The position numbers were made by a program, and so were the translations under genes. Source: Coriobacteriia bacterium (GTDB lineage Bacteria > Actinomycetota > Coriobacteriia > Anaerosomatales > JAENZW01). From it: 35,377 nt of DNA. The stretch's first letter is position 1; the number at the start of each line of letters is the position of its first letter. The notes beneath the pieces are model-generated. The model saw nothing but the letters and a program-made list of their open reading frames with translations. It ran no database searches and had not been told where the DNA came from. Location: the NCBI GenBank assembly GCA_029858605.1, contig JAOUET010000002.1, positions 1-35,377 of the forward strand, in the 5' to 3' direction. Below are positions 2,397 through 25,601 of this stretch, one piece after another.

Positions 2397-3170
2397 TTGG
2401 CCGACCGTACTGTGACGACAGGCGATCAAGTGTGTGTCAAGTCACAAAGTGCAACGGCCGATAAACCAGTCATGAGAACTCATACTTCCAGAGAGCAGTC
2501 GGTCGCCAGACTGCGGGCTATCCCGATGTTCGCAGACCTCTCCGCCGAAGACATCGATACCTTCGCGGACATGGTGCAGTACCGCACGTATCCGAAGAAC
2601 TCGTTCATCGTCAACCAGAACGACATCGGTTCTACGATGTACCTGCTTGTCTCCGGTCGCGTGAAGGTCTCCCTTGCATCTCCGGACGGCAAGGAGCTCG
2701 CACTGAACTACCTGGAGGCGCCCGCTCACTTCGGCGAGATGAGTCTCGTAGACGCGGAGCCGCGCTCAGCGGACGTGATAGCCGTGACGGATGTCGAACT
2801 GTTCTCGCTCGACGCGAAGGATCTGTCTTCGGCAATCCAGCTCAACCCCAGGCTCGCACTCTCCCTGATCGCGACCCTGTCGCGTCGCCTGCGGCACACG
2901 ATCGCACGCCTCGAGGACATGGCGTTCCACGATGCGACGCACCGCGTGATGCGCGTGCTGCTGAATGTGGCGACAGCCAGCTACGAAACGCGCGGCGTTC
3001 CCGTAATCCAGGGGCTCACGCACTACGACATAGCAACGCTGGCCGGCACATCACGCGAGACGGCCAGCCGAATCATCTCGAATCTCGCAAAGGAAGGGGT
3101 AGTGGCCACGAAGGGCCGGAAGATCGTGGTCGACCTCATCAAGCTGCGGGAGCGTCTCGAGGGTCAGTAG
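2397..3170 (+). CDS. Crp/Fnr-family transcriptional regulator (cNMP-binding domain plus C-terminal HTH)
   Basis: IPMFADLS...FGEMSLVD...RSADV is typical of a cNMP-binding beta-barrel. SRETASRIISNLAKEGVV is the Crp-type HTH. There is no N-terminal Fnr Cys cluster. The TTG at 2397 is the longest start; the ATG at 2472 (MRTHTS...) is an equally plausible start. Confidence 0.85.
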   Translation: MADRTVTTGDQVCVKSQSATADKPVMRTHTSREQSVARLRAIPMFADLSAEDIDTFADMVQYRTYPKNSFIVNQNDIGSTMYLLVSGRVKVSLASPDGKELALNYLEAPAHFGEMSLVDAEPRSADVIAVTDVELFSLDAKDLSSAIQLNPRLALSLIATLSRRLRHTIARLEDMAFHDATHRVMRVLLNVATASYETRGVPVIQGLTHYDIATLAGTSRETASRIISNLAKEGVVATKGRKIVVDLIKLRERLEGQ

Positions 3171-5087: not shown

Positions 5088-6779
5088 GTGGCTGAGAAGA
5101 AGGTTCTTGTGGTCCACGAGGACGCGAGTCTGGTCGACCAGATCCGCGCGACTCTGGCGGAGTCCGGTGCCGACATCGAGGTCGTCAGTGCGCTGTCCGG
5201 TCCAAGGGCCATGGGCATGGTTGGAGCCCAGAAGCCCGATGTGATCGTGGTCGACGGCGAACTCGAGGGGATGGACGGCTATGCGCTCACTCAGCAGATC
5301 AAGGCTGACCCAGCCGCCGCCGAGGTCCCGATAGTGATCCTGTCGCTTGCGCCCAACGAGATGTCTGCGCTTCGAGCTCGCCAGGCGGGAGCCGCAGCGC
5401 ATCTTCCGGCAAGCGGTCCGATGGTGCAGATAGTCCAGAAGATACTCACACTTGCGCAGCTCGAGGCCAGTGTTCCGGTGCCGGCGACGGCCGACCCGGC
5501 AGAGCACGGCACACCGCAGGCGGTCCGACCCTCAGCCGGTGTGGCCGCTGCACCCGCGCCTCTCGACGACGCATCGTACGGTGTGCCCCAGGCTGCTCCT
5601 GCGACCGCGCCGCCCGCTGCCTCGCCTCCGACGGCGCCAACGGCGCCAACGGAGCCGGTGGGTCCGGTCTCGGGCGGGCGTCTCGGCGGAGAACCTCCGA
5701 AGTCGGGCGACATACCACACATCGACGATCTTCTGCGATTGATGCTCGAGCGCGGAGGTTCCGACCTGCATGTCACGGTGGGCAGCTCGCCAGGCATCCG
5801 TCAGCGAGGCGACATCGTTCCCGTGGAGAACATGCGGCCACTGATGCCTCGCGACACTCAGGAGATGATCCTGAACCTGCTGTCGGAGGAGCAGCGCAAG
5901 CGTTTCGAGACCGAACTAGAGCTGGATTTCGCGTACAGCATTCCGGGCGTTTCGCGATTCCGCGCGAATGTGTTTCAGCAGCGCAACTCGATGGGTGCCG
6001 TGTTCCGCGTCATTCCCATAGAGATACCGACCATCGAGCAATTGGGTTTGCCGAAGGTCTGCCGGTACTTGGCCGAGCGCCCCAGAGGTCTGGTACTCGT
6101 GACCGGTCCGACGGGGTCCGGTAAGTCGACCACGCTCGCGGCGATGATCGATCACATCAACGAGACGCGCTCGGTGCACATCATCACGCTGGAAGACCCG
6201 ATCGAGTTCATGCATAAGAACAAGAAGTCATACGTGAACCAGCGCGAGATCGGCGAGGATACTCACTCCTTCGCGGCGGCTCTGAAGCGAGTGCTGCGTC
6301 AGGACCCCGATGTCATCCTCGTCGGCGAGATGCGCGATCTCGAGACTATCTCGGCAGCGATCACGGCGGCCGAGACTGGCCACCTGGTTCTCGCCACCCT
6401 GCACACTACGGGCGGCCCCGCCACGGTCGACCGGGTCATCGACGTATTCCCCCCTCACCAGCAACAGCAGGTGCGTATGCAGCTGTCCACCACGCTGGAA
6501 GGCGTCTTGTCTCAGGTGCTGATGCGCAGTACGGACGGCCGGAGTCGGATTCTTGCGATGGAGATCATGCTCGGCATTCCGGCAATCCAGAACCTCATCC
6601 GTGAGGGCAAGACGCACCAGATGACGACGATCATACAGGGCGGCGCTTCCCTCGGCATGCAGACTCTGGACCAGCATCTGAAGGCGCTGCTGCAGGGCGG
6701 CAAGATCACCTTCGAAGAGGCCATCGGCAAAGCCATGAACCCGCGCGAGCTCGCTCAGATGGTCGGACGGAAACTCTGA
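5088..6779 (+). CDS. pilT: Response-regulator receiver domain fused through a Pro/Ala-rich linker to a PilT-type (type IV pilus retraction) hexameric ATPase
   Basis: REC: VLVVHED..., phospho-acceptor context DVIVVDGELEGMDG, then VPIVILS. Linker runs from about aa 125 to 205 (APAPLDD...PPTAPTAPTEP). PilT core: Walker A GPTGSGKST, Asp box ITLEDPIEF, Walker B DPDVILVGEMRD, His box TGHLVLATLHT, and the PilT signature AIQNLIREGK. GTG start with the GAGGAGGG SD upstream. Confidence 0.85.
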   Translation: MAEKKVLVVHEDASLVDQIRATLAESGADIEVVSALSGPRAMGMVGAQKPDVIVVDGELEGMDGYALTQQIKADPAAAEVPIVILSLAPNEMSALRARQAGAAAHLPASGPMVQIVQKILTLAQLEASVPVPATADPAEHGTPQAVRPSAGVAAAPAPLDDASYGVPQAAPATAPPAASPPTAPTAPTEPVGPVSGGRLGGEPPKSGDIPHIDDLLRLMLERGGSDLHVTVGSSPGIRQRGDIVPVENMRPLMPRDTQEMILNLLSEEQRKRFETELELDFAYSIPGVSRFRANVFQQRNSMGAVFRVIPIEIPTIEQLGLPKVCRYLAERPRGLVLVTGPTGSGKSTTLAAMIDHINETRSVHIITLEDPIEFMHKNKKSYVNQREIGEDTHSFAAALKRVLRQDPDVILVGEMRDLETISAAITAAETGHLVLATLHTTGGPATVDRVIDVFPPHQQQQVRMQLSTTLEGVLSQVLMRSTDGRSRILAMEIMLGIPAIQNLIREGKTHQMTTIIQGGASLGMQTLDQHLKALLQGGKITFEEAIGKAMNPRELAQMVGRKL

Positions 6780-6829: not shown

Positions 6830-7270
6830 ATGGACGATGTAAGGATCCGCTGGGCGGGCAAGCGTCAGTTCGTGGGCTGGGACCAAGCCGGACACGGCGT
6901 CGTCATGGATTCGACACTCACGCACGGGGGCGAGGGGTCCGGTGTGCGTCCGCTCGAGCTCGTCCTGTACGGACTGGCGGGCTGCACGGCGATGGACGTC
7001 ATCTCGATTCTCGAGAAGAAGCGGCAGAGCGTGTCCGCGCTGGAGATACACGTCCAGGCGGAGCAGCGCACGGACGACTACCCGAAGATCTACGAGCGCA
7101 TCAACATCCATTTCGTAGTGAGTGGGCGCGATGTCGCGGATACGGCGGTTGCGCGTTCGATCGAACTGTCGGAGGAGAAGTACTGTTCGGTTCGAGGCAT
7201 GCTTGGTCCGCAGGTCGACGTGACCACGTCCTTCGAGGTTCGAGAAGCGGCTCCTGAGAACGCAGACTAG
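6830..7270 (+). CDS. OsmC-family protein (putative thiol-dependent hydroperoxide reductase)
   Basis: 146 aa. The two conserved Cys contexts are present (LAGCTAMDV and EKYCSV), with RPLELVL upstream. A GGAGGAG SD lies before the ATG. Confidence 0.8.
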   Translation: MDDVRIRWAGKRQFVGWDQAGHGVVMDSTLTHGGEGSGVRPLELVLYGLAGCTAMDVISILEKKRQSVSALEIHVQAEQRTDDYPKIYERINIHFVVSGRDVADTAVARSIELSEEKYCSVRGMLGPQVDVTTSFEVREAAPENAD

Positions 7271-7290
7271 GCGTGTGACCGGGACGACTG

Positions 7291-7992
7291 ATGAGCGACG
7301 CCATCCTCATGCCCGTATACAACGAGTCTTCTACCGTGTCCGACGTTCTCGACACAGTTCGGGGATACCACGATGGCGAGATCCTCGTGGTCAACGATGG
7401 CTCCACGGACGATACGACTGCCGTTCTCGCGGCACGGGAAGATGTGACCGTGATCGCGCATCCCGCCAATCTCGGCTACGGTCGTGCCCTGGCGGAAGGC
7501 TTCGCGGTGGCGAGGTGCCGTGGAGTCGAGCGACTGGTGACGATGGACTGCGACGGCCAGCACGAGCCAGCTCACATACCGCAGTTCCTGGACGCCCTCG
7601 AGGAGGGGTGGGATGTGGTGTCGGGGAGCCGATACCTGCCTGAGAGCGAGGAGGTCGGAGAGGCGCCCGCCAGCCGTCGTGAGGTCAACGCGCGCATCAT
7701 GAGCGAAATCAACCGCATGACGGGCTGGAGTCTCACCGATGCGTTTTGCGGGTTCAAGGCGTACAGACTGCCGTCGCTCGACGGGATGCCGCTCACGGAG
7801 CCCGGCTACGCGATGCCGCTCCAGCTATGGGCGCACGCCTGGCACCGAGGACTGCGAGTGACCGAGATCCCGGTCGAGCGCATCTACTTCGACAACGATC
7901 GCTCCTTCGGCGAGGATCTCGACGATCCGGAATGGCGGTACGCTTACTACATGCGTGTCTGGCGAATGGCACTCGAGGAGGAGCAGTGGTAG
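7291..7992 (+). CDS. Soluble family-2 glycosyltransferase (GT-A fold, DPM1/polyprenol-phosphate-GT-like)
   Basis: MPVYNES, VVNDGSTDDT, NLGYGRALAEG and the DxD motif MDCDGQH. I saw no hydrophobic TM segment. Confidence 0.8.
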   Translation: MSDAILMPVYNESSTVSDVLDTVRGYHDGEILVVNDGSTDDTTAVLAAREDVTVIAHPANLGYGRALAEGFAVARCRGVERLVTMDCDGQHEPAHIPQFLDALEEGWDVVSGSRYLPESEEVGEAPASRREVNARIMSEINRMTGWSLTDAFCGFKAYRLPSLDGMPLTEPGYAMPLQLWAHAWHRGLRVTEIPVERIYFDNDRSFGEDLDDPEWRYAYYMRVWRMALEEEQW

Positions 7993-8666
7993 ATGTCGCT
8001 TGCGTCGGGGCTCACCCGGACGACGTCGAGATCGGCATGGGAGCGACGATCGCCGGTCTCGTGCGAAGGGGGCTGACTGTCGCGATCGTGGATCTCACGG
8101 ACGGCGAGCCGACTCCGCGGGGCACGCGGGAGACCCGCATGAGAGAAGCCGCACTCGCCGCGGAGATACTCGGCGCCGAGCGAGTGACGTTGAGTCAACC
8201 GAATCGGTATCTGTTCGACACCGCCGAAGCGCGCACGGAGTTGGCCGAAGTGCTGCGCGACTTGCGCCCCAGAACGCTGTTCGTGCCGTTCGCCGAAGAC
8301 GCACATCCCGATCACACCGCCGCGCACGCGATCGCCGTGGCCGCCAGATTCTACGCGAAGTTCACGAAGACCCAGATGCGCGGTGAGCCGCACTATCCCG
8401 AACGCGTGTACCAGTACATGGCCGTTCATCGCCGCCTGTTGCGCGAGCCCTCGTTCGTGATCGATGTGACCGAGGACTTGCCGAAGAAGCTCGAGGCGCT
8501 CGCAGCGTACGAGTCCCAGTTTCAGTCGAATCCAGCGAATGCGGACGTGGTCGGGATGCTGACCGAGTTCGCCCGGATGTGGGGCGCTCTCGTCCGCGTT
8601 GAAGCTGGGGAGCCCTTCTACGCCCTGGAGCCGATTGGCATCCGGGCAGTGGAAGACTTGGTGTGA
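7986..8666 (+). CDS. PIG-L/LmbE-family N-acetylglucosaminyl deacetylase, BshB1-like
   Basis: VGAHPDDVEIGMGATIA (PIG-L metal-binding motif), IVDLTDGE, EDAHPDH, FVIDVT, LEALAAYESQF. The GTG at 7986 overlaps the GT2 stop (GTGGTAG) and follows GAGGAGGAG. The longer ORF from 7746 lies inside the GT2 gene and is rejected. Confidence 0.8.
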   Translation: MVDVACVGAHPDDVEIGMGATIAGLVRRGLTVAIVDLTDGEPTPRGTRETRMREAALAAEILGAERVTLSQPNRYLFDTAEARTELAEVLRDLRPRTLFVPFAEDAHPDHTAAHAIAVAARFYAKFTKTQMRGEPHYPERVYQYMAVHRRLLREPSFVIDVTEDLPKKLEALAAYESQFQSNPANADVVGMLTEFARMWGALVRVEAGEPFYALEPIGIRAVEDLV

Positions 8667-8673
8667 ACGCACC

Positions 8674-10248
8674 ATGGTGAGGGCGCGACCGGTTCTACCG
8701 CACGGGCACGGGGAGCTCCTTACGGACCCACCCTTCGACGAGTGGGCGGCGATAGCCGATGAGAATGCCGCACGCAGCTCGGCCTGGGACTTCACCGTGG
8801 GCGGCGTGTCTGCAGCGGAACTCCGTCAGCAGGCCCGGCGCGAAGCTGTGACCGGAGCCGAGGAGTTCTCTGCCCGACTCGGCGTGCCTACTCGTTCGGT
8901 TCCGGCGGAACCCGGACGCGTAGTGCTCACCGGGCACCAACCACAGCTCTATCATCCCGGAGTCTGGATAAAGAACTTCCTGCTCCAGCGTTTTGCCGAC
9001 GAGACGGGTGCTGCCGGAATCGATCTGGTAGTCGATTCGGACGCCTTCGAGTCGGTCTCACTCACGATGCCGTGTCTTGCTCCTGAGGTTCGCAGGTGCA
9101 GCGAACCGCTGGCGACCGGGGGACCCAATCGGTGCTTCGCGTGCACGGACTCACAGGACCGGGCCGCCGTCGAACGCTTCTGCTCGGTCGTCGACGGTCT
9201 TCTCGCGGGGCTGCCCGCACCTGCGCTTCGTCGTCATTTTGGCGAGTTCGGCACCGCATTGCTTTCGGCTGTCGAGGACGCTCGGAATCTTGGCGAACTC
9301 GTGACGTTTGCACGTCGCAGGTACGAGCGGGTCGCGGGGACCGACTACGCCGAGTTGCCCGTCACTCGCCTGGGCCGAACGGAGGCCTTCGCACGGTTCG
9401 TCTCGGATATCGTCGTGCGCGCCGAGGAGTTTGCCGCCTGCTACAACTCGGAGTTAGGGAGGTACCGGCGAGCGAATCGCATCCGGACCGCGGCACAGCC
9501 GTTCCCGGACCTGTCCGTTGAGAGCGCAGAGACCGAACTGCCGTTCTGGGCTATGGGCGCTACGAGCCGAGGCGCGCTGAGCGTCGCGCGGCATGGCGAC
9601 ACGGTAGTGCTGCTTTCCGACGGCGCGCCTCTGTTCGAGGTCCCGGCGCAAGCTGATGCTGTTGCCGACGCGCTGCACGACGCGAATGTGATGCTGGCAC
9701 CCAAAGCGCTGACGCTCACGCTGTTCGCGAGGCTCTTCGTTGCCGACCTGTTCATCCACGGGGTGGGCGGAGGTCGCTACGACCGCGTTACGGATGGCGT
9801 GATGCGCGACTTCTACGGAATCGAGGCTCCCCGCTACGTCGTCGCGTCGATGACGATGTACCTCCCGCTGGGAGGACACATCGTGACCGATGAGGAACTC
9901 GCCGAGGCGCGGCGGCGACTCCAGCGGCTCGAACACAACCCAGATTCGCTTCTGGGAGAAGTGGACTTCGAGACCACGGAGGATAGACGAGAGGCGTTCG
10001 AGCTTGCCGAAGAGAAGACACAGCTCGTCGCCGAGATCGCGGAAGCTCAGGCGGACAAGAAGAGACTCGGATCGCGGATACGAGAGGTGAACAGGCAACT
10101 CGCAGACTTGCTCGGCCCGCTCGCCGATCAGTTGAGCACAGATCTCGCAACGCTCGAGGCACAGAGAGCCGCTACGGAGATCCTGACCGACCGCGAGTAC
10201 CCGTTCTGCCTCTGGAGCCCTCTCGAGGTTGCCGACAAGGCGCGCTAG
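8674..10248 (+). CDS. Uncharacterised 524-aa protein with BshC-like motifs and a C-terminal coiled coil (putative cysteine-adding/ligase-like enzyme)
   Basis: The ATG at 8674 is 7 nt after the deacetylase stop. VLTGHQPQLYHPGVWIKN resembles the BshC GGQQxGLxxGPLYxxxK motif. APKALTLTLFARLFVADLFIHGVGGGRYD resembles BshC's RPLMQE...LAFIAGPGEINYW. The last ~110 aa are heptad-rich (EEKTQLVAEIAEAQADKKRLGSRIREVNRQLADLL), like the BshC coiled-coil tail. That this is a coding gene is near certain; the functional call is tentative. Confidence 0.55.
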   Translation: MVRARPVLPHGHGELLTDPPFDEWAAIADENAARSSAWDFTVGGVSAAELRQQARREAVTGAEEFSARLGVPTRSVPAEPGRVVLTGHQPQLYHPGVWIKNFLLQRFADETGAAGIDLVVDSDAFESVSLTMPCLAPEVRRCSEPLATGGPNRCFACTDSQDRAAVERFCSVVDGLLAGLPAPALRRHFGEFGTALLSAVEDARNLGELVTFARRRYERVAGTDYAELPVTRLGRTEAFARFVSDIVVRAEEFAACYNSELGRYRRANRIRTAAQPFPDLSVESAETELPFWAMGATSRGALSVARHGDTVVLLSDGAPLFEVPAQADAVADALHDANVMLAPKALTLTLFARLFVADLFIHGVGGGRYDRVTDGVMRDFYGIEAPRYVVASMTMYLPLGGHIVTDEELAEARRRLQRLEHNPDSLLGEVDFETTEDRREAFELAEEKTQLVAEIAEAQADKKRLGSRIREVNRQLADLLGPLADQLSTDLATLEAQRAATEILTDREYPFCLWSPLEVADKAR

Positions 10249-10319
10249 GCGTTGCCGTGATATCATTTCGCCACGCTTTGCCAGCGAATGCGTGTCCGTA
10301 GCTACGAAAGGATCGTGAG

Positions 10320-10496
10320 ATGTCCGTTCCCGTTGTTGACACGAACCTGTGTACCGCGTGCGGTATCTGCGTGGACGAGTGTCCGCAGGAGTGCTACGAC
10401 CTCGCGGACGTCGCCGTGCTCGCTCGCCCGGACGATTGCACCGAGTGTGGTATCTGCGTGGACGAGTGCTCGAGCGAGGCCATCTCGATGGACTAG
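10320..10496 (+). CDS. Clostridial-type 2x[4Fe-4S] ferredoxin (58 aa), not present in the supplied ORF track
   Basis: My translation: MSVPVVDTNLCTACGICVDECPQECYDLADVAVLARPDDCTECGICVDECSSEAISMD*. It has two CxxCxxCxxxC motifs. AAAGGA lies 7-8 nt upstream of the ATG. The listed ORFs 10288..10512(+) and 10302..10508(-) are off-frame shadows of it. Confidence 0.85.
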   Translation: MSVPVVDTNLCTACGICVDECPQECYDLADVAVLARPDDCTECGICVDECSSEAISMD

Positions 10497-10517
10497 GCGT
10501 CGATACAAGTAATGCCA

Positions 10518-10545
10518 AGCGGGGTCGGTTCTTGCCGGCCCCGCT
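10518..10545. terminator. Stem-loop between convergent ferredoxin (+) and plsY (-) genes (putative bidirectional terminator)
   Basis: AAGCGGGGTCGG / loop TTCTTG / CCGGCCCCGCTT-like arms, 11 bp including one G-T wobble. It lies 22 nt after the ferredoxin stop. Confidence 0.45.
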
Positions 10546-10601
10546 CGCGTTCCGGGTGCGTGAGATCGTCCCGCGCTAGACCGCTCGCAGTCAGCCCGAT
10601 C

Positions 10602-14689: not shown

Positions 14690-14718
14690 TTATCACTCGC
14701 CAACAGCACTGGTAGAAT
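14690..14718 (+). promoter_or_regulatory. Sigma-70-like promoter candidate for the cyclophilin gene
   Basis: -35 TTATCA (14690-14695), a 17-nt spacer, and an extended -10 TGgTAGAAT (14710-14718). It lies ~68 nt upstream of the ATG at 14786. Confidence 0.4.
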
Positions 14719-14785
14719 GACCTACGGTTCGAGGGCATTTTGCGCAGGCCGATAACCATGCGTTCACGAGAGGACCCGAACGCCG

Positions 14786-15508
14786 ATGTCGACATCGAGG
14801 CTCCGAATGTGGACCACGATTCTCGTCTGCGTAGTGCTTGGAGCCACCAGTGTCGCATCGGTCGGGTGTTCGGAGAGCGGTAGCCGAAACGCGGCACAAG
14901 AGAGGACGGACGAAACGTCCCAAGAGGAACCGAAGGGGGAAGCCGTCATTCCAGGACAGCAACCGTTGTACACCGCGACCTACGTACCCAGCGGCAAGGA
15001 AATCGCCGTGCTCAAGACGTCGAAGGGAACTGTGAAGCTGAGGTTCTTCTCGGACGACGCGCCCAACCATTCGGCTTGCTTCATAGAACTCGCGCAGAAG
15101 GGCTACTACGACGGTGTGAAGTTCCACCGCGTCATTCCCGACTTCGTCGCTCAGGGAGGCGACCCACAGACGAAGGAGTTCGCTTCCGAAGAGGTCGCCG
15201 ATATCGTCGCCCGACAGTCTGCCGGTCAGTACGAGCCGGGCGAGCCCATGCTGGGGACGGGGGGTCCCGGCTATCGCATCGCCGCGGAGTTCAACGCTCG
15301 CCAGCATCTCGAGGGCACGTTGGCGATGGCGCGTTCGAGCGACCCCGACTCCGGTGGCTCGCAGTTCTACATCTGTCTCGCCCCGCAGCCGGCGCTCGAC
15401 GGAGACTACACGGTCTTCGGCGAGGTCGTTGAAGGTATGGACGTGGTCAAGGCGCTAGTGATAGGTGACGAGATCGAATCCATCACTATCGAGAAGGCGA
15501 TCAACTAG
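14786..15508 (+). CDS. Secreted (possibly lipoprotein) cyclophilin-type peptidyl-prolyl cis-trans isomerase
   Basis: N-terminal signal peptide MWTTILVCVVLGATSVASVGC, an imperfect lipobox. Cyclophilin motifs FHRVIPDFVAQGGDP and GTLAMARSSDPDSGGSQFYI. Confidence 0.9.
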   Translation: MSTSRLRMWTTILVCVVLGATSVASVGCSESGSRNAAQERTDETSQEEPKGEAVIPGQQPLYTATYVPSGKEIAVLKTSKGTVKLRFFSDDAPNHSACFIELAQKGYYDGVKFHRVIPDFVAQGGDPQTKEFASEEVADIVARQSAGQYEPGEPMLGTGGPGYRIAAEFNARQHLEGTLAMARSSDPDSGGSQFYICLAPQPALDGDYTVFGEVVEGMDVVKALVIGDEIESITIEKAIN

Positions 15509-17430: not shown

Positions 17431-18453
17431 ATGTTCTTTCGCGTCATGGACCAGTCGCGCCTGCCTGATCTGGTGCGCGGACTGGCCGAAGAGTTCGAGG
17501 TAGTCGGTCCCGTGGCCAAGGACGATCGCTACGTCTTCGGCCGAATCGAGGATCCTGCGGATCTGGAGCTTCACTACGACACGACTCTCCTTCCTCCCAA
17601 GAAGCTCTTCTTCCCGCCGGAAGAGCGGATGATGCGCTTCCGTGTCGCCGACAACGAAGTCGTCGACGACGAAGTGTATGCGGGTCCGCGAGTTCTGTTC
17701 GGTGTCCATCCGTGCGATATCAACGGGCTGCTACTGATGGACAACGTGTTCATGGGGGACTTCGAGGACCCGTACTACAAGGCACGGAGGGAGAACACCG
17801 TCATCGTCGGCGTGTCGTGCACGCCGACGGACACGTGCTTCTGCAACGCCTGGGGCACGGACGAAGTCCACTGGGGCTTCGACATCTTCTTGACCGACCT
17901 AGGCGACCGATACTTCGTCTCCGTCCGTTCCGTGCTTGGTGCCGAGTTGTTGGACAGGCACGTCGAGACGCGAGAGATCGGCGATGCGGACACCGAGGCC
18001 TTCCAGAGCGCAAGTCGGAAGTTCAAAGGGTCGTTCACCGAAGAACTCGATACATCGCAACTCCCCCTGCTCCTCGACGCGAAGTTCGACAGTCCGATGT
18101 GGGACGAGCTCGGCGACAGGTGTCTGTCGTGCGGTGCGTGTTCGACAGTGTGCCCCACGTGCTACTGCTTCGACGTCGTCGATCGGCTCGAACCGGATCA
18201 GAAGACGGGCATGCGAGAGCGCCGGTGGGACTCGTGCCAGTTCGTCGAGTTCGCAGCCGTTGCCCACGGCGAGAACTTTCGCGTTTCGCGGGCGAGCCGA
18301 GTGAAGTACCGCTACTACCACAAACAGTGGGGCTACCTCTCCAAGTTCGAACGCGTTCTTTGTGTCGGTTGCGGACGCTGTGAGCGAGCTTGTCTTGCGA
18401 AGATCAGCCCGAGAGAGGTCGTCAAGGCGCTGGAGACAGGGGGTGTCCAGTGA
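17431..18453 (+). CDS. Group 3b-type [NiFe]-hydrogenase beta subunit (HydB/AsrA-like Fe-S protein)
   Basis: CLSCGACSTVCPTCYCFDVVD and CVGCGRCERACLAKI Fe-S motifs in an AsrA/sulfhydrogenase-beta architecture. First gene of four with overlapping stop and start codons. Confidence 0.8.
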   Translation: MFFRVMDQSRLPDLVRGLAEEFEVVGPVAKDDRYVFGRIEDPADLELHYDTTLLPPKKLFFPPEERMMRFRVADNEVVDDEVYAGPRVLFGVHPCDINGLLLMDNVFMGDFEDPYYKARRENTVIVGVSCTPTDTCFCNAWGTDEVHWGFDIFLTDLGDRYFVSVRSVLGAELLDRHVETREIGDADTEAFQSASRKFKGSFTEELDTSQLPLLLDAKFDSPMWDELGDRCLSCGACSTVCPTCYCFDVVDRLEPDQKTGMRERRWDSCQFVEFAAVAHGENFRVSRASRVKYRYYHKQWGYLSKFERVLCVGCGRCERACLAKISPREVVKALETGGVQ

Positions 18454-19307
18454 TGACTGCTTCAAAGAACCAGCATTTGGCCGCGAATCCGTATCGTCCG
18501 TGGCCCACGAGGATCACGTCGATCGTCGACTTGACCGAAAACGAGAAGCTGTTCGAGTTGCGCATCATCGACGACGAGGTGCGCGACACCTTCCGATTCG
18601 ACTCCGGGCAGTTCGTGGAGATGTCCATCTTTGGAGTCGGCGAGGCGCCGATATCCATCTCCTCGGCACCCAGCAAACGAGGCTTCATCGAACTCTGTGT
18701 CCGCAAGGCGGGTGACGTCACGGGCGCCCTTCACTCGAAGCGTTGCGGTGACATCATTGGCATTCGTGGCCCGTTCGGTCGCGGCTTTCCGATCCAGGAG
18801 ATGAAGGGACACGATGTACTGCTAGTCGCCGGCGGCCTGGGTATCGCCCCCTTGAAGTCGCTGATCAACCAGATCCACGACGAGCGCCATGAGTTCGGCA
18901 AGGTGACGATCCTCTATGGCGCCAGGAATCCGAGCGAAGTCCTGTTCCGCTACCAGTTCGACATGTGGAAGCACCGCGACGATTTCGAGCTGATTCTCAC
19001 CGTCGACGAGGCCGACGACTCATGGGCGGACGAAGTAGGCGTGGTCACGAAGCTGTTCGACAAGATCGAGATCGATTCGGCGCGCACCTATTCGGCCATC
19101 TGCGGTCCACCCGTCATGTATCGCTTCGTCATCGACGAGATGCGCAAGAAGGGCATGGATGTCGACCGAATCTTCGTGTCGTTCGAACGCAGGATGAAGT
19201 GCGGGATAGGGAAGTGCGGCCACTGCGGGGTCGGTCACCAGTACACGTGCATCGACGGACCGGTCTTCAGCTACTGGGAAGCGATGAACCTGCAGGAGGC
19301 GATATAG
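18453..19307 (+). CDS. Group 3b-type hydrogenase gamma subunit (FAD/NAD(P)-binding, C-terminal [2Fe-2S]; HydG/AsrB-like)
   Basis: The ATG overlaps the beta stop (TGATG). FNR-like fold: RFDSGQF, LVAGGLGIAPLKSL, ICGPPVM. C-terminal cluster CGIGKCGHCGVG. Confidence 0.8.
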   Translation: MTASKNQHLAANPYRPWPTRITSIVDLTENEKLFELRIIDDEVRDTFRFDSGQFVEMSIFGVGEAPISISSAPSKRGFIELCVRKAGDVTGALHSKRCGDIIGIRGPFGRGFPIQEMKGHDVLLVAGGLGIAPLKSLINQIHDERHEFGKVTILYGARNPSEVLFRYQFDMWKHRDDFELILTVDEADDSWADEVGVVTKLFDKIEIDSARTYSAICGPPVMYRFVIDEMRKKGMDVDRIFVSFERRMKCGIGKCGHCGVGHQYTCIDGPVFSYWEAMNLQEAI

Positions 19308-20051
19308 ATGGGCGCCCGTGTTGTCGTCCTTGGCCTGGCAAGCGATTTCGGTTGCCAGGTGCAACTCACGAACATCGAAGACCACCTGCTCGACGTTCTT
19401 GGACTGATCGATCTCTCGTACTGGCAGCTCGCTTCGAGCGGGCACATGCCGGACGAATACGATGTCGCGCTCGTTGAGGGTGCGGTCACGACCGACGAAC
19501 ACGTCGAGCTGCTTCGCAAGGTGCGCGAAACGGCTGCGGTGGTGATAGCCATTGGCTCGTGCGCGGTGACCGGAGGGATTCCGGCACTTGCCGGAACGGG
19601 CGATCTCGAGGGTCGATACGAAGCGGTCTACGGAGAGGGTACAGACGTTGCACGCGGCCGGACGCGACCAGTTGCTGTCACGTCCGTGATCGAGGTGGAC
19701 TACATCGTTCCCGGATGCCCCATCGACACGGGGGAGTTCCTCAAGGTGCTCTCGCGCGTCCTGGGCGGTCTTTCGGACAAGCCTTCCGAGCAGCCCATGT
19801 GCTTCGCGTGCAAGACGAGGGAGAACGTGTGCTTCTTCGAGAAGGGTGAGATGTGCCTCGGAGTCGTGACTCGCTCGGGTTGTCATGCCCGCTGCATCTC
19901 GCTCGGGCGTCCGTGCACGGGCTGCCGAGGAATCGCGCCCGAAGCCAACCTGGGCGCCGCGCGCGACGTATTCGAGCAGCACGGCTTCGAGACCGCCCGC
20001 TCGCTTCACGCCATGAACCTCTACAACACCAACGAGGAGGTGGCCCTCTGA
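19308..20051 (+). CDS. [NiFe]-hydrogenase small (delta) subunit, group 3 type
   Basis: GCQVQL, VEGAV..., AIGSCAVTGGIP and VPGCP are the proximal-cluster Cys motifs. Further Cys clusters: CFACK...CF...CLG and GCHARC...PCTGC. Confidence 0.85.
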   Translation: MGARVVVLGLASDFGCQVQLTNIEDHLLDVLGLIDLSYWQLASSGHMPDEYDVALVEGAVTTDEHVELLRKVRETAAVVIAIGSCAVTGGIPALAGTGDLEGRYEAVYGEGTDVARGRTRPVAVTSVIEVDYIVPGCPIDTGEFLKVLSRVLGGLSDKPSEQPMCFACKTRENVCFFEKGEMCLGVVTRSGCHARCISLGRPCTGCRGIAPEANLGAARDVFEQHGFETARSLHAMNLYNTNEEVAL

Positions 20052-21313
20052 TGCCACTGCTTACCGTAGAGCACGTCGCACGTATCGAGGGCCACGGCAC
20101 GATCACGGTGGACGTGCATGACGGCGAAGTGCGTGACATATCGATGGACGTGGTCGAGCCGGCCCGCTTCTTCGAGTCGATTGTGGTCGGCCGAAGGTTC
20201 GACGAGGCACCGCTCATCACCTCGCGCATCTGCGGAATATGCTCCCCGAACCACGCGCTGACCTCGATAAAGGCGATGGAAGCAGCGCTTGGTGTGGACG
20301 TGAGCGAGAGAACGCGCGTGATGCGGAAGCTTCTCGTGTACGGAAGCTACCTGCAGAATCACGCGACCCATCTCTACTTGTTCGCGGCACCCGATTTTGT
20401 CGGGCTCCCCAGCGTATTCCCCCTTGTGGAAACGCATCCGGAGGTCGTCGAGCGCGCTCTGCGCATCAAGAAGCTCGGGAACGATCTCACCACGCTCGTG
20501 GGTGGGCGACCGGTCCATCCGATCACCGCCGTCGTCGGCGGGTTCACGAGCGAGCCGGATCCCCACGTCCTGGAGGGATTCGCCGAGACGTTGCGCGAGC
20601 TGGCCGAGGACCTTACGGAGACGGTGGGTCTCTTCTCGACCTTCGAGGTACCGGACTTCTCGACGTCCGGCGACATGCTGGCTCTGAGCAGCGAGGACGA
20701 CTACGCGATCTACGAAGGAGACGTTGTCGCGGTTGACGGGGGCTGGCGCAAGCCCGTGTCCGCGTACCGCGATTTCATTCGCGAGCAGGTGTTGACGCAC
20801 AGCAACGCCAAGCATTCGATGGTGGACGGAAGGACGTTCATGGTCGGTGCGCTTCCTCGAGTCAACGCCTCGTCCGACAGTCTGACTCAGCAGGCGAAGG
20901 ACGCGCTGCGGAATGCGGGCGTGTCCGCGGTGTCGAGAAACACGTTCCACAACAACATGTGTCAGGCAGTGGAACTCGTCGATGCGGCAGGCAGATGCGC
21001 GGGCTACATCGACCAGCTGCTCGAGATGGGGGGAAGTACTGCACCCGTCAGCGTAGCCGTACGAGCCGGGGAAGGAGCGGGGGCCACGGAGGCCCCGCGC
21101 GGAACCCTCTACCACAGCTACCGGGTGGACGATGACGGCATCATCACCGCGGGAGACGTCATCACGCCGACGGCGCAGAATCTCGCCAACCTCGAGGCGG
21201 ACATGCGGGTATTCGCCCCGACTGTCGTGGGTCTCCCTCGCGATGAGTTCCTTCTGTCCCTAGAACAACTCGTGCGAGCCTACGACCCCTGCCTTTCCTG
21301 CGCGGTTCACTAG
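20051..21313 (+). CDS. [NiFe]-hydrogenase large (alpha) subunit, group 3b-like
   Basis: The ATG overlaps the delta stop. N-terminal RIEGHG, L1 motif RICGICSPNH, C-terminal motif DPCLSCAVH followed immediately by TAG. Confidence 0.9.
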   Translation: MPLLTVEHVARIEGHGTITVDVHDGEVRDISMDVVEPARFFESIVVGRRFDEAPLITSRICGICSPNHALTSIKAMEAALGVDVSERTRVMRKLLVYGSYLQNHATHLYLFAAPDFVGLPSVFPLVETHPEVVERALRIKKLGNDLTTLVGGRPVHPITAVVGGFTSEPDPHVLEGFAETLRELAEDLTETVGLFSTFEVPDFSTSGDMLALSSEDDYAIYEGDVVAVDGGWRKPVSAYRDFIREQVLTHSNAKHSMVDGRTFMVGALPRVNASSDSLTQQAKDALRNAGVSAVSRNTFHNNMCQAVELVDAAGRCAGYIDQLLEMGGSTAPVSVAVRAGEGAGATEAPRGTLYHSYRVDDDGIITAGDVITPTAQNLANLEADMRVFAPTVVGLPRDEFLLSLEQLVRAYDPCLSCAVH

Positions 21314-21323
21314 CCGAAACGAC

Positions 21324-21356
21324 GACGTCGGAGGACGAAAGCAGGAATCCGACGTC
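21324..21356 (+). terminator. Stem-loop between the hydrogenase operon and rnfC (terminator or attenuator candidate)
   Basis: 9-bp stem GACGTCGGA / TCCGACGTC with a 15-nt loop and no T-tract. A TAGAAT -10-like hexamer follows at 21362-21367. Confidence 0.35.
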
Positions 21357-21409
21357 TGAGGTAGAATCGGTTGCCTAAACCGGCAAGTCTTACAAATGAA
21401 GGGATCCCG

Positions 21410-22711
21410 TTGTCAAAGGCCGGGTTCAGGGGTGGGGTACATCCTCCTTCCTTCAAGGAGGCCACCAGAGCGTCGCAGACCGTGACGGCTCCGCTTCCCG
21501 AGAGGCTCTTCATTCCGATGAGCCAGCACTTGGGAGCGCCGTGTGCCGCCAGCGTATCGGTTGGGGACCGAGTCGAACGCGGACAGGTCATCGGAGACGT
21601 GGACGCTATGGTAAGCGCTCCGATCCACTCGCCGGTGGCTGGCGAGGTCGCAGCGATCGGCACTCAGCTGACCCCAGGTGGCCAGAGGGTCCCAACCGTT
21701 GAGATCGTTCCCGACGAGGAACAGGATTTCGAGAGTTTCGTTCCGGTTCCTGAGGCGGACGACCCACGCGACATCGTCAGGGCCGCCGGAATCGTGGGCC
21801 TCGGCGGTGCCGCATTCCCTTCCCATGTGAAGCTGCGCCCGCCGCACGACATGCCCATCGACACGGTGATTCTGAACGGGTGCGAATGTGAGTCGTTCCT
21901 GACATGCGACGACCGGCTCATGCGCGAGCGTCCCGAGCGGGTCGTGGCCGGGGCGCGTCACATCAAGGACATCGTGGGCGCGTCGCGGGTCGTCATCGGT
22001 ATCGAGGACAACAAGCCCGAGGCCTATCAATCCGTGAGCGCAAGGGCAGGGGGCGACGTAGAAGTACTGTCTCTGCCGACCGCCTACCCTCAGGGCGCAG
22101 AGAAGCAGCTGATCTGGACCGTTCTCGGCAAGGAAGTCCCACGTGGCAAGCTGCCTGCTGCGACCGGTGCCCTCGTCCACAACGTGGCGACGGCCGTTGC
22201 CATCGCGGATGCGATCGAGCATCGTCGGCCGCTCATGGAGCGCATAGTCACGGTGACCGGGAGCGTGGAGCGGCCCGCCAACTATCTCGCGCTGTTCGGC
22301 ACTCCCGTCGAATTGTTGATCGAAACGTCCGGGGGACTGTCAGCAAACGTGGGTAGGGTGATCGCCGGCGGTCCCATGACGGGGGCCGCGCTGGCCGACC
22401 TATCGGTCCCGGTCGTGAAGGGTACATCAGGGGTTGTCGCGCTTGAGTCGGGTCAGACCGCCCCCGCCGTGTCCGACGACCAACCGTGCATCAGGTGTGC
22501 TAGATGCGCGGACGCATGCCCCATCTCCCTTGAGCCGTTCGCCATCGGAGTCTATGCGAATCGTGGCGACTGGGACGGCAGCGAAGTGTACCGCGCACTG
22601 GACTGCATAGAGTGCGGTTGCTGCAGCTACGTTTGCCCGACCAGGCGTCCTCTCGTACAGCTCATTCGTCGCGCGAAGCATGCGCTCATGCAGAGGGGGT
22701 CGAGGCCGTGA
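21410..22711 (+). CDS. rnfC: Rnf complex subunit C (ferredoxin:NAD+ oxidoreductase, NADH/FMN/Fe-S subunit)
   Basis: FRGGVHPP N-terminus, GLGGAAFPSHVKL, NGCECES, and two 4Fe-4S motifs (CIRCARCADACP and CIECGCCSYVCP). I prefer the TTG at 21410 (GAAGGGA SD, and an N-terminal length like known RnfC). The ORF is open from the TTG at 21371. Confidence 0.9.
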   Translation: MSKAGFRGGVHPPSFKEATRASQTVTAPLPERLFIPMSQHLGAPCAASVSVGDRVERGQVIGDVDAMVSAPIHSPVAGEVAAIGTQLTPGGQRVPTVEIVPDEEQDFESFVPVPEADDPRDIVRAAGIVGLGGAAFPSHVKLRPPHDMPIDTVILNGCECESFLTCDDRLMRERPERVVAGARHIKDIVGASRVVIGIEDNKPEAYQSVSARAGGDVEVLSLPTAYPQGAEKQLIWTVLGKEVPRGKLPAATGALVHNVATAVAIADAIEHRRPLMERIVTVTGSVERPANYLALFGTPVELLIETSGGLSANVGRVIAGGPMTGAALADLSVPVVKGTSGVVALESGQTAPAVSDDQPCIRCARCADACPISLEPFAIGVYANRGDWDGSEVYRALDCIECGCCSYVCPTRRPLVQLIRRAKHALMQRGSRP

Positions 22712-23733
22712 TGCAAGAAGCCGCGACCACCCCAAGGCCTCAGATTGCGTCGTGTCCCCATCTGGCGGCCAAAGAGAGCGCGCCGGACATAATGTTGTGG
22801 GTAGTTGGCGCACTGGCGCCGGCTGCCGTGTGGGCTGTCTGGAACATGGGTTCAACGGCGGGAACCGTGTTCATCGTCTCGATAGTGTCGTGCCTCGGTA
22901 CGGAAGCGCTGTGGAACTACCTGGCCAAGCGCCCGCAGACGTTGATGGACTGGAGTGCGCTCGTCACGGCGATACTGCTGGCCATGACCCTTCCGCCGAG
23001 AACGCCTTGGTGGATGGTGCTCGCAGGTGGCGTAGTGGCCATCGGGCTGGGCAAGATGCTGTTCGGCGGGCTGGGTTGGAACCTCTTCAACCCTGCGCTC
23101 GTCGGCAGGGCGATGATTACGATCTCCTGGGCAGGTGTTCTCGCCGTACAGAAGGTGCCCGGCGGGTGGTTCCAGGGAATCGACGTGGCTGAGACAGGCG
23201 GATTGGACGCCATCAACGGCGCTACTCGTCTAGCGATCGCGGCGGCGGATCGTGCGGCAGAAGGTGGCTACGGGTTCGATCTTGGGGCACAGTTCGAGCC
23301 GCTACTCTTCCGAAACCTCGAGGGATGCATTGGCGAGGTATCTGCGGCACTGCTCATACTCGGCGGCTTGGTCCTGATCTTGAAGGGCATCATCGACTGG
23401 CGGATTCCTGCGGGCTACATCGGCACCGTAGCCGTATTGTCGGGCCTCTGCGGCTCGCAAGGCTTCCTGGACGAGGCGATCTTCAACGTACTCGCGGGTG
23501 GCGTGTTGCTCGGGGCCTTCTTCATGGCCACCGACTACGTGACGTCGCCCATGACGAAGACCGGAAGGCTGGTATTCGCGTGCGGCTGCGGGCTCATCAA
23601 CTGTGTCGGACGCTTCTACGGTCCGATGCCGGAGTCGACGACTTTCGCGATCCTATTCATGAACGGTCTGGTACCGCTTATCGACCGTTCATTGCGGCCC
23701 AGGACCTACGGGTGGGTGAGCAAGCGTGAGTAG
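22711..23733 (+). CDS. rnfD: Rnf complex subunit D (membrane, covalent FMN)
   Basis: The ATG overlaps the rnfC stop (GTGATG). Polytopic membrane protein. Flavinylation motif DAINGATRL. FFMATDYVTSP. Confidence 0.9.
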   Translation: MQEAATTPRPQIASCPHLAAKESAPDIMLWVVGALAPAAVWAVWNMGSTAGTVFIVSIVSCLGTEALWNYLAKRPQTLMDWSALVTAILLAMTLPPRTPWWMVLAGGVVAIGLGKMLFGGLGWNLFNPALVGRAMITISWAGVLAVQKVPGGWFQGIDVAETGGLDAINGATRLAIAAADRAAEGGYGFDLGAQFEPLLFRNLEGCIGEVSAALLILGGLVLILKGIIDWRIPAGYIGTVAVLSGLCGSQGFLDEAIFNVLAGGVLLGAFFMATDYVTSPMTKTGRLVFACGCGLINCVGRFYGPMPESTTFAILFMNGLVPLIDRSLRPRTYGWVSKRE

Positions 23734-24313
23734 GATGGCCTCGACTCCAGCTCGCATGGTCCTTGCAGTCGTGGTGACATGCACCGCATCGGCTGCCGCC
23801 TTGACGTTCACCTACGAGGTGACGAAGGACCGCATCGCGGAGCAGGAGCGTCTGGCGCGCGAGAAGGCGCTGAACGAAGCCCTGCCTGAGGCAACCGAGT
23901 TCACGGAGATGGACGAGAACATGCTGGTCTCTGCGCGCGAATCAGCAGGAGAGACACGTGTGGATGCGATCTTCGATGCGGGTGGCGCGGGATGGGGTGT
24001 CCTGGTCGCGCCTCGTGGCTACGGCGGACCGATGCCGATGGTAGTCGGCGTGGATAGTGATGGGAAAGTCACGGGTGTCATGATCATCACGCAGAACGAG
24101 ACGCCCGGTCTCGGCACGAAGATCGTGACGGACGAGTCGTTCCTGCCACAGTTCCGTGGCTGGGACGCCTCGGACGTGGACACGGCGGTCAAGGCGTTCG
24201 ATGCGATCTCCGGAGCCACGAAGTCATCGGGCGGAGTTCGAAAAGGTGTGGTCGCGGCCGGGCACATCTATGAGGAAGTGCTTTCTCAGACCGAAGGGGG
24301 GAGCGTACCGTGA
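23726..24313 (+). CDS. rnfG: Rnf complex subunit G (FMN-binding, membrane-anchored)
   Basis: N-terminal TM anchor, ETPGLGTK, and flavinylation motif DAISGATKSS. The start is either the GTG at 23726 or the ATG at 23735. Confidence 0.9.
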   Translation: MSRMASTPARMVLAVVVTCTASAAALTFTYEVTKDRIAEQERLAREKALNEALPEATEFTEMDENMLVSARESAGETRVDAIFDAGGAGWGVLVAPRGYGGPMPMVVGVDSDGKVTGVMIITQNETPGLGTKIVTDESFLPQFRGWDASDVDTAVKAFDAISGATKSSGGVRKGVVAAGHIYEEVLSQTEGGSVP

Positions 24314-24969
24314 GCGAGTGGCTTGCCACGTTCAGGCGCGGACTCTCCATCGAGAATCCCTTGACGATCCTGATGATCGGACTTTGCGCGACCCTTGCCG
24401 TCTCGACCAAGTTCGAAGGCGCGTTCTTCATGGGACTTGCCGTGATCTTCGTGCTGACAATGTCGAGCGTGATCGTCTCGAGCCTGCGCAAGCTGATACC
24501 CGAGAAGGTCAGGATACCCGTCTTCATCGTGGTAATCGCATCTTTCGTGACCATCGTTGACCTGTCGATGCATGCGTTCATTCCAGGTGTCTACAACTTC
24601 CTGGGTGTGTGGATTCCGCTGATAGTGGTGAACTGCATCATCCTTGGCCGAGCCGAGGCCTTCGCCTATCACAATCCGGTGAGACTGGCGATCGCCGATG
24701 GGCTTGGGATGGGAATCGGCTTCTCAATGGTCATCATGTTGCTTGCGACTATCAGGGAGTTTGTCGGAAGTGGGGAGATCGTGTTTCTCGGGCAGAAGCT
24801 TGTGGCTCTGCCTTCGGCGTATCAGGGGCCGGGGATCATGCTCCTCTTCCCGGGTGCGTTCATACTCTTCGGCTTCATGATCGCCGGAGCGCGGTGGGTG
24901 ACTTGGCGCCGCGAGGGCAGGGTCGTTGAGACATCCCAGCACTGCACTATCGAGGAAGGGGCCTCGTGA
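24310..24969 (+). CDS. rnfE: Rnf complex subunit E
   Basis: NPLTILMIGLCATLAV, IPLIVVNCIILGRAEAF. The GTG overlaps the rnfG stop (GTGA). Confidence 0.9.
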   Translation: MSEWLATFRRGLSIENPLTILMIGLCATLAVSTKFEGAFFMGLAVIFVLTMSSVIVSSLRKLIPEKVRIPVFIVVIASFVTIVDLSMHAFIPGVYNFLGVWIPLIVVNCIILGRAEAFAYHNPVRLAIADGLGMGIGFSMVIMLLATIREFVGSGEIVFLGQKLVALPSAYQGPGIMLLFPGAFILFGFMIAGARWVTWRREGRVVETSQHCTIEEGAS

Positions 24970-25592
24970 TGGGCGAGACTCTTCGCAACCTGGCGTTGCT
25001 GTTCATCGGTGCTGCGCTGGTCAACAACATACTGCTTACCCGGTTCATCGGGCTGTGCCCATTCTTCGGTGTCTCGGGTGCCATGGAGACATCGGTCGGC
25101 ATGGCTGGCGCTGTCGTCTTTGTGATGACTCTCGCCTCGTCGGCAACGTGGGTGTTCTGGAACGCACTGCTTTCGCCGCTCGGCGTCGGAGACTTCCTCT
25201 ACATACCGGCGTTCATTCTTGTGATAGCGGCGCTGGTGCAGTTCGTCGAAATGTACTTGAGGAAGGCTATTCCGACACTGTATCGAGCGATGGGCATATA
25301 CCTGCCGCTCATCACGACGAACTGTGCCGTCCTGGCAACGGCCACGGAGGCCGTGAAGCCCGGTTTCTTCAAGATGAACATCGCCTACAGCTTCGGTTTC
25401 TTCGAGATGCTCGTGTATACGGTTGGCGTCGCCGTTGGATTTGGCTTCGCACTGATCACCTTCGCGGCCCTGAGAGAGCGTCTCGAGGTTGCCCCGGTTC
25501 CGGGCATCCTCAAGGGATCGCCGATGGCGTTCGTCACTGCGGGTCTGCTCTCGCTCGGCTACGTTGGGCTTTCCGGCATGTTCGGTCTTTAG
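24966..25592 (+). CDS. rnfA: Rnf complex subunit A
   Basis: LVNNILLTRFIGLCPFFGVS, YLPLITTNCAVLA. The start is the GTG at 24966 or the ATG at 24969, overlapping the rnfE stop. Confidence 0.9.
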   Translation: MMGETLRNLALLFIGAALVNNILLTRFIGLCPFFGVSGAMETSVGMAGAVVFVMTLASSATWVFWNALLSPLGVGDFLYIPAFILVIAALVQFVEMYLRKAIPTLYRAMGIYLPLITTNCAVLATATEAVKPGFFKMNIAYSFGFFEMLVYTVGVAVGFGFALITFAALRERLEVAPVPGILKGSPMAFVTAGLLSLGYVGLSGMFGL

Positions 25593-25601
25593 GGGTATGG
25601 G

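Follow-up and report, generated by a model that had tools for sequence, protein, structure and literature searches.

A glycosyltransferase, a BshB1-type deacetylase and a BshC-fold protein form a conserved bacterial gene cassette with a possible role in low-molecular-weight thiol synthesis

The window studied here is a 35,377-nucleotide stretch of DNA (contig JAOUET010000002.1) from an uncultured anaerobic actinobacterium of the Coriobacteriia. Three of its genes, at positions 7291-10248, encode a family 2 glycosyltransferase (GT2), a BshB1-type deacetylase and a 524-amino-acid (aa) protein that adopts the BshC fold in a predicted model. Together the three form a conserved functional unit. We consider it about an even call that this unit encodes a three-step cytoplasmic pathway of the bacillithiol/mycothiol type, with two of its parts either non-orthologous to those of the known pathways or highly diverged from them.

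Conservation of the Cassette Across Bacterial Phyla

The 524-aa protein belongs to a large family. At the 50% identity level it comprises 3,585 clusters for E ≤ 1e-3, or 1,740 for the stricter E ≤ 1e-30, none of them annotated. Neither Pfam nor NCBIfam has a model for it. When GTDB was scanned at one genome per species with a narrower alignment of the family (A3), 80 loci were returned, and the neighboring genes were scored by tblastn with the window proteins. The loci are spread over at least six phyla: Coriobacteriia-like Actinomycetota, Planctomycetota (many), Nitrospinota, Armatimonadota, Firmicutes/Limnochordales and Atribacterota. Within the Planctomycetota they are found in Planctomycetaceae, Pirellulaceae, Gemmataceae, Isosphaeraceae and Brocadiia. 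Two Planctomycetota carriers (L075 and L048) are metagenome-assembled genomes (MAGs) assigned to the cultivated genera Gimesia and Planctomyces (Planctomyces sp. SH-PL62).

A GT2 gene lies directly upstream of the 524-aa homologue and on the same strand at 70 of the 80 loci (42-73% identity), and at 33 of the 80 a BshB1-type deacetylase gene is found between the two. Median identity to the window proteins is 50% for the GT2, 53% for the deacetylase and 32% for the BshC-like protein. Starting in reverse from the deacetylase gave the same order: all four of the top BshB1-like matches examined sit in a GT2, BshB1, Pfam-less protein arrangement. The third protein is 521-544 aa long in three of these loci, and in the fourth (L085) it is 284 aa and is ended by the contig edge. 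The trio arrangement recurs beyond chance. Comparison of gene neighborhoods in related genomes had been proposed in an earlier reading of the window made from the sequence alone (hereafter the original prediction), and the order of the three genes proved to be kept far beyond the host lineage.

Linkage to the GT2 is not universal, as the BshC-like gene follows mutS rather than a GT2 gene in four Scalindua/Brocadiia-like, anammox-related Planctomycetota (L024, L036, L037 and L039). When all open reading frames (ORFs) of 81 loci were clustered, neither a universal fourth gene nor a conserved membrane protein emerged, only clade-specific synteny. Two neighbors recur in Planctomycetota. At 10 loci (L035, L049, L050, L054, L059, L062, L074, L076, L080 and L081) the gene immediately after the BshC-like gene, in the same orientation, encodes an Eis-like GNAT (Acetyltransf_9 plus SCP2_2 domains, about 420-530 aa, weak NCBIfam Eis match). 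A Fe/Mn superoxide dismutase (SOD) gene is found upstream of the GT2/BshC-like pair, in divergent orientation, at seven (L043, L046, L047, L048, L071, L073 and L075).

In Armatimonadota-like MAGs, the trio is found directly upstream of the System I cytochrome c maturation genes ccmA, B, C, E and F. This arrangement spans positions 950-12684 of L082, 2501-12684 of L083 and 5309-12684 of L084, and it is also present in L018, L019, L022, L025, L031, L033 and L034. Directly upstream of the trio are heme biosynthesis genes (hemA/C/D/B/L-type) in L082 and L083, and genes for TGT, YajC and an HD protein in L084. This setting may point to some connection of the trio's product with heme or cytochrome c thiol chemistry.

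A BshC-Fold Protein Outside the BshC Sequence Family

The third gene of the trio (8674..10248, + strand) encodes the 524-aa protein. Its AlphaFold2 model, made with a 42-sequence alignment, has a pLDDT of 92.5 and a pTM of 0.86. In the model, core domains of alternating β-strands and α-helices (Rossmann-type) are joined to a long C-terminal helical hairpin, helices 406-504, which corresponds to the coiled-coil tail that had been read from the sequence. When the model was compared to the PDB using Foldseek, the top match was Bacillus subtilis BshC (4WBD; E 4e-12, probability 1.0). The match runs the full length of the model, with TM scores of 0.53/0.51 over 541 aligned columns and 10% identity, in agreement with the original prediction of a BshC-like enzyme. 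Next was the class I lysyl-tRNA synthetase LysRS-I (5.9e-5, TM 0.33), with weaker matches to TyrRS, TrpRS and GluRS behind it. In BshC, CP1/CP2 insertions and a dimerizing coiled coil are added to a Rossmann core (PMC4360819), and the model shows the 4WBD architecture in its Rossmann-type core and C-terminal coiled coil. Judged by its predicted structure, the 524-aa protein is a structural relative of BshC, and it is probably an evolutionary relative as well.

The kinship is not detected at the sequence level. In Pfam and NCBIfam searches at E ≤ 10 the 524-aa protein matched nothing but coiled-coil noise, with no BshC and no tRNA synthetase model among the matches, and a Pfam scan of 68 relatives found no domain in any of them. 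Searches of PDB sequences gave no match either with the protein itself (phmmer) or with profiles of 42 or 68 relatives (hmmsearch, the 4WBD sequence included). For profile-profile comparison, the 524-aa family (A2) was aligned to a BshC profile (A4) of 26 sequences, Bacillaceae only, drawn from the best 120 matches to the verified 4WBD sequence. The hhalign result was not significant (probability 1.75%, P 0.028). Alignment of the family to a single BshC sequence by hhalign yielded no significant match, hhalign -glob returned no alignment, and reciprocal hmmsearch (--max) between the two families gave only noise.

As no hidden Markov model (HMM) or profile-profile method detects PF10079, PF24850 or TIGR03998, the 524-aa protein falls outside the BshC family as sequence models define it. 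The BshC-like motifs reported in the original prediction therefore lack profile support, the PF10079/TIGR03998 check having found no BshC match in the protein or its 68 relatives, while the likeness itself is real at the level of the fold. A class I aminoacyl-tRNA synthetase (aaRS) catalytic domain, the hallmark of MshC, was likewise not found in the 524-aa sequence. Among the columns invariant across the family there is no Cys/His zinc site of the MshC/CysRS type.

The low-stringency hhalign path between the two families is collinear, pairing 1-528 with 8-537 over 461 columns. At 14 positions along it, the trivial M1/M1 included, the two families carry the same conserved residue. The remainder (window protein/BshC) are R55/R53, G87/G90, Q89/Q92, D121/D134, D123/D136, P276/P273, P343/P335, F360/F347, G363/G350, G365/G352, Y369/Y356, T394/T381 and R507/R504. 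In a shifted-register null the mean was 0.7 and the maximum 4, although the underlying alignment is itself not significant. The shared residues are thus supportive only of kinship with BshC.

A Deacetylase of the BshB1 Family

The middle gene of the trio (7986..8666, + strand, GTG start) encodes a 226-aa deacetylase with the PIG-L/LmbE fold motifs AHPDD and HPDH. It matches PF02585 (PIG-L) at 5.8e-25 and scores 191.6 bits (E 1.5e-56) on TIGR04001, the BshB1 equivalog model, for which the curated cutoff is 182.5 bits. Scores on the BshB2, MshB and Mca models are much lower; on the MshB model TIGR03445 the protein reaches 49.6 bits compared to a cutoff of 224. The closest solved structures, TT1542 (5e-38), BcZBP 2IXD (1.4e-35) and BshB 6P2T (2.3e-33), are BshB-type enzymes. 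Partner deacetylases from Nitrospinota, Armatimonadota, Atribacterota and one unclassified MAG score 199-206 bits, all above the BshB1 cutoff. The description of the enzyme as BshB1-like, originally made from motifs, is borne out by these profiles: according to the NCBI curated model the deacetylase is a member of the BshB1 family, and its predicted substrate would be N-acetylglucosamine (GlcNAc) linked to an acceptor X.

Public records for Nitrospinota, Armatimonadota and Atribacteria MAGs already name the deacetylase of the trio 'bacillithiol biosynthesis deacetylase BshB1' or 'N-acetylglucosamine malate deacetylase 1', and the adjoining protein of about 520 aa is a 'hypothetical protein'. 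Because one partner is named BshB1 while the other stays hypothetical, automated bacillithiol pathway calls in these groups may mislead, in either direction.

A Divergent GT2 Without Transmembrane Helices

The first gene of the trio (7291..7992, + strand) encodes the GT2, a 233-aa protein in which PF00535 (3.5e-27), a GT-A domain, is the sole type of glycosyltransferase domain. The GT4 domains that mark BshA and MshA (Glycos_transf_1 and Glyco_transf_4) were not found in it. Enzymes of the GT2 family are inverting. The core of the protein is DPM1/PpgS-like, with the motifs NDGS and DCDGQHEP, and its best NCBIfam match is PpgS (NF058614, polyprenyl-phospho-GalNAc synthase) at 103.5 bits compared to a cutoff of 370. 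Lower-ranked matches are dolichyl-phosphate hexose transferases, AglJ and ArnC, the score on the ArnC model NF007986 being 57 bits with a cutoff of 529. For the partner GT2s of other phyla PpgS is also the best match, at 64-113 bits. The family cutoffs of polyprenyl-phosphate GT2s such as PpgS and ArnC are not reached.

A profile of 15 GT2 sequences (A5), searched against the PDB, matched DPMS (5MLZ, 2e-22) and ArnC (3e-20), with the alignment confined to profile positions 2-186 of 237. The C-terminal approximately 50 residues do not align with DPMS or ArnC. This region carries the family-invariant R204, F206, L210-D211-D, R216 and Y220 (R-x-F-G...LDD...R..YY). The GT2 has no predicted transmembrane (TM) helix, with a maximum KD19 hydropathy of 0.67. 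The original prediction had held that grouping of the GT2 with polyprenol-phosphate enzymes, by phylogeny and neighborhood, would speak against a thiol pathway. By sequence the GT2 does group with these enzymes, in the GT-A core only and at 64-113 bits compared to 370. By neighborhood it does not, as it travels with the BshB1 and BshC-like genes and not with envelope genes.

Proposed Pathway

In the pathway we propose, the small, TM-less, inverting-type GT2 would transfer an N-acetylhexosamine (HexNAc), most likely GlcNAc from UDP-GlcNAc, to the acceptor X. The BshB1-type zinc deacetylase would next strip the N-acetyl group from GlcNAc-X, exposing the amine of glucosamine (GlcN). The BshC-fold enzyme, which like BshC probably dimerizes through a coiled coil, would then join an amino acid to that amine. 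By analogy with bacillithiol and mycothiol, the cassette probably adds cysteine, in which case the product would be a low-molecular-weight (LMW) thiol. Inversion of the anomeric configuration by a GT2 would be expected to give a product that differs from bacillithiol at least in its glycosidic linkage and probably also in its aglycone. In Planctomycetota, the Eis-like GNAT would fit an MshD-like final N-acetylation. Tentatively, and with somewhat less than even confidence, we suggest that the cassette makes an undescribed thiol, a β-linked Cys-GlcN-X that would be N-acetylated in Planctomycetota by the Eis-like GNAT.

Several features are consistent with a thiol pathway. BshC is the only strong PDB match of the 524-aa model, with the class I aaRSs far behind. 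The GT2 is without a TM helix and has no conserved membrane partner nearby. Stress-related genes neighbor the cassette, OsmC in the window and the Fe/Mn SOD and Eis-like GNAT in Planctomycetota.

Other observations weigh against it. Sequence methods fail to link the 524-aa family to BshC, and the count of 14 shared residues is biased upward because the alignment was optimized to match profile columns. The BshC analogy itself rests on genetics, since the cysteine-ligase activity of BshC has never been reconstituted in vitro and its catalytic mechanism is unresolved (PMC4360819). The nearest characterized relatives of the GT2 (PpgS, DPMS and ArnC) all use polyprenyl phosphate acceptors. PpgS-type enzymes, with a model length of 226, also lack TM helices, so peripheral membrane binding of the GT2 stays conceivable. 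In the Planctomycetota loci no PIG-L gene was found within 6 kb, and no Planctomycetota names are among the best 120 BshB1-like matches. Finally, no thiol-specific partner (bacilliredoxin, Bdr/YpdA or an S-transferase) was found in the neighborhood of the cassette.

Of the known systems, the bacillithiol pathway of B. subtilis (BshA, a GT4; BshB1; BshC) is the closest in layout. The order of logic is the same, from glycosyltransferase to deacetylase to ligase. The deacetylase is BshB1 by the NCBI equivalog model, and the modeled third protein has the BshC fold end to end, including the C-terminal coiled coil. In the non-significant alignment described above, the 524-aa family and BshC share collinear G-x-Q, D-x-D, R-P and F-x-x-G-x-G-x-x-x-Y motifs and a C-terminal R. 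However, the glycosyltransferase is a GT-A-fold GT2 of an inverting family, whereas BshA is a GT-B-fold, retaining GT4, and the third protein lies outside PF10079, PF24850 and TIGR03998 with about 10% identity to BshC. The genes of the cassette also stand in one operon, while bshC of Bacillus stands separate (PMC4360819).

Mycothiol, a GlcN-Cys conjugate, is made in the same phylum, by the Actinomycetes (MshA, a GT4; MshA2; MshB; MshC; MshD). The likeness of the deacetylase to MshB is weak, both being of the PIG-L superfamily, and in Planctomycetota the Eis-like GNAT after the BshC-like gene would parallel acetylation by MshD. MshC, in contrast, is paralogous to CysRS and has HIGH/KMSKS motifs and a zinc site; it is an enzyme to which the 524-aa protein is not detectably related by sequence; class I aaRS folds are distant structural matches of its model. 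Unlike the mycothiol pathway, the cassette is without a GT4, and no inositol-phosphate enzymes are encoded nearby. Domain annotation of the 35-kb window found no GT4 or PF10079 gene anywhere within it.

Several major bacterial phyla, including Planctomycetes, are without a documented or predicted LMW thiol (PMC6282198), and the supplement of that study holds nothing on the phyla that carry the cassette. In the full-text literature we found no description of the 524-aa family, or of a BshC-like or GT2-based thiol pathway. A large, unannotated BshC-fold family that in most loci accompanies one particular GT2, and often a BshB1-type deacetylase as well, provides a concrete gene set with which to test for a missing thiol. 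If the proposal is correct, Planctomycetota, Nitrospinota, Armatimonadota, Atribacterota and anaerobic Coriobacteriia-like Actinomycetota would have this thiol as the major redox buffer that has been missing for them. BshC would in that case have an ancient sister in the 524-aa family, and comparison of the two could reveal how BshC-type enzymes ligate cysteine. Carriers in cultivated genera like Gimesia and Planctomyces would make a test for the thiol practical.

Alternative Explanations

The cassette could also make a soluble, non-thiol metabolite based on GlcN, though this is rather unlikely. In that case the BshC-fold enzyme would add another amino acid or a carboxylate, to give a product such as a compatible solute, a metal chelator or a cofactor precursor. 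Since the distance of the 524-aa family from BshC is at or beyond the limit of sequence detection, its substrate specificity may have changed, and the missing MshC/CysRS-type zinc site and the lack of thiol-dependent enzymes nearby would both suit a non-thiol product. That the Armatimonadota-like trio is flanked by genes for heme biosynthesis on one side and cytochrome c maturation on the other could also mean another role; yet the cytochrome c maturation context is itself related to thiol redox. Moreover, the only characterized enzymes that combine the BshC fold with a BshB1 partner make a Cys-GlcN thiol. Stress-defense neighbors (OsmC and SOD) recur in separate phyla, and the carrier phyla are without any known LMW thiol, which also argues for a thiol over a different metabolite.

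Given the nearest relatives of the GT2, the main rival to a soluble product is a lipid-linked aminosugar, which we regard as improbable. Under this scenario, the GT2 would act at the inner membrane face, like PpgS, DPM1 and ArnC, and make a polyprenyl-phosphate-HexNAc. The PIG-L enzyme would deacetylate it, as eukaryotic PIG-L does GlcNAc-PI, and the BshC-fold enzyme would acylate or aminoacylate it before it is flipped for envelope decoration. The pairing of a GT2 with a deacetylase is a motif known from lipid-linked aminosugars. PpgS is the best NCBIfam match of the GT2 in all five phyla tested, and DPMS and ArnC are its best sequence relatives in the PDB. Like PpgS-type and DPM1-type enzymes, which can do without TM helices, the cassette GT2 is short and TM-less, and it shares the GT-A core and the NDGS and D-x-D-type motifs of the polyprenyl-phosphate GT2s (PpgS/Rv3631, DPM1/DPMS 5MLZ, ArnC and GtrB).

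The likeness ends with that core, however. The GT2s score three- to five-fold under the family cutoffs, and the C-terminal region is the acceptor/membrane interface in DPMS and ArnC. In the cassette GT2 this region is non-alignable and acidic, with the invariant LDD, and the low maximum hydropathy of the protein also counts against a lipid acceptor. The deacetylase is a BshB1 equivalog, a type that acts on soluble substrates like GlcNAc-malate. The GT2 is partnered by the BshB1 and BshC-fold enzymes and not by flippases or GT-C transferases: in none of the phyla does a conserved flippase, GT-C transferase or small membrane partner adjoin the cassette.

Bacillithiol is α-linked GlcN-malate, made with a retaining GT4. 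That the cassette makes authentic bacillithiol by non-orthologous displacement, the GT2 forming GlcNAc-malate and the 524-aa protein being a fast-evolving BshC, would fit the BshB1 score and naming of the deacetylase and the top fold match of the 524-aa model, but it is very improbable, as an inverting GT2 using UDP-α-GlcNAc would give a β-glycoside and the 524-aa family is a separate, deep and large clade with its own invariant motifs rather than an offshoot of BshC.

Gene Layout and Neighboring Genes

The trio lies within a block of five co-directional, closely spaced genes on the + strand. The first (6830..7270) encodes a 146-aa OsmC-family protein and the last (10320..10496) a 58-aa, 2x[4Fe-4S] ferredoxin. 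The OsmC stop codon (7268-7270) is separated from the GT2 ATG (7291) by 20 nucleotides (nt). The deacetylase GTG at 7986 overlaps the GT2 TAG (7990-7992) by 7 nt in the sequence GTGGTAG. There are 7 nt between the deacetylase TGA (8664-8666) and the ATG of the 524-aa gene (8674), and 71 nt between the stop codon of the latter (10246-10248) and the ferredoxin ATG (10320). Gene order and spacings are all as originally described.

A GC-rich hairpin lies at 10511..10551 between the ferredoxin gene and the convergent plsY/yegS genes, with plsY ending at 10602. The hairpin has a 12-bp core stem at 10518-10545 and a minimum free energy of -37.9 kcal/mol (z = -2.85). It had been described as a terminator. 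The hairpin is indeed present after the ferredoxin stop codon; it is without a T-run, and the terminator scan made no call there, so a canonical intrinsic terminator is ruled out. Possibly it is a U-tract-less or bidirectional terminator.

The OsmC protein matches PF02566 (8e-17, 61.9 bits with a cutoff of 27.5) and scores 124 bits on the NF008009 equivalog model, under the cutoff of 138. The ferredoxin matches PF00037 (Fer4) in two stretches at 1.1e-11. OsmC adjoins the GT2 only in the Coriobacteriia-like loci (L001-L016), and it is only in the same loci that the ferredoxin, at 67-89% identity, is found downstream of the trio. Linkage of either gene carries little information, because the whole PilT-to-YegS region is syntenic in this clade. 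The two were thus ruled out as core parts, and their proposed role as redox partners is unsupported as a general feature of the cassette. OsmC is probably accessory, and both are best explained as co-transcribed passengers or lineage-specific accessories of the cassette.

Upstream of OsmC, a PilT-family type IV pilus retraction ATPase is encoded at 5088-6779 (+ strand). A response-regulator receiver domain stands at its N terminus, and it has a linker of about 100 aa that is rich in Pro and Ala. The PilT/receiver fusion is kept upstream of OsmC in related MAGs. Further upstream, a 736-aa GlcF/HdrD-like oxidoreductase with FAD-oxidase_C, 4Fe-4S dicluster and two CCG cysteine-rich domains (53-2263, + strand) is followed by a Crp-family regulator (2397-3170). 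On the other side of the block, a 204-aa ORF between the EF-G gene and that of a TPR protein (14693-15307, - strand) has no Pfam match at E ≤ 1e-5.

The remaining genes of the window, including EF-G, NDK, NiFe hydrogenase, Rnf and MreBCD-PBP2-RodA, belong to the chromosome of an anaerobe, and the closest relatives of the window proteins are in uncultured Coriobacteriia/Actinomycetota MAGs. The region at 17431-27400 (+ strand) encodes co-directional Fe-S/flavin oxidoreductase subunits, the small and large subunits of a NiFe hydrogenase, and Rnf (RnfC, D, G, E/A and B). This gene content therefore indicates a ferredoxin-based anaerobic energy metabolism.

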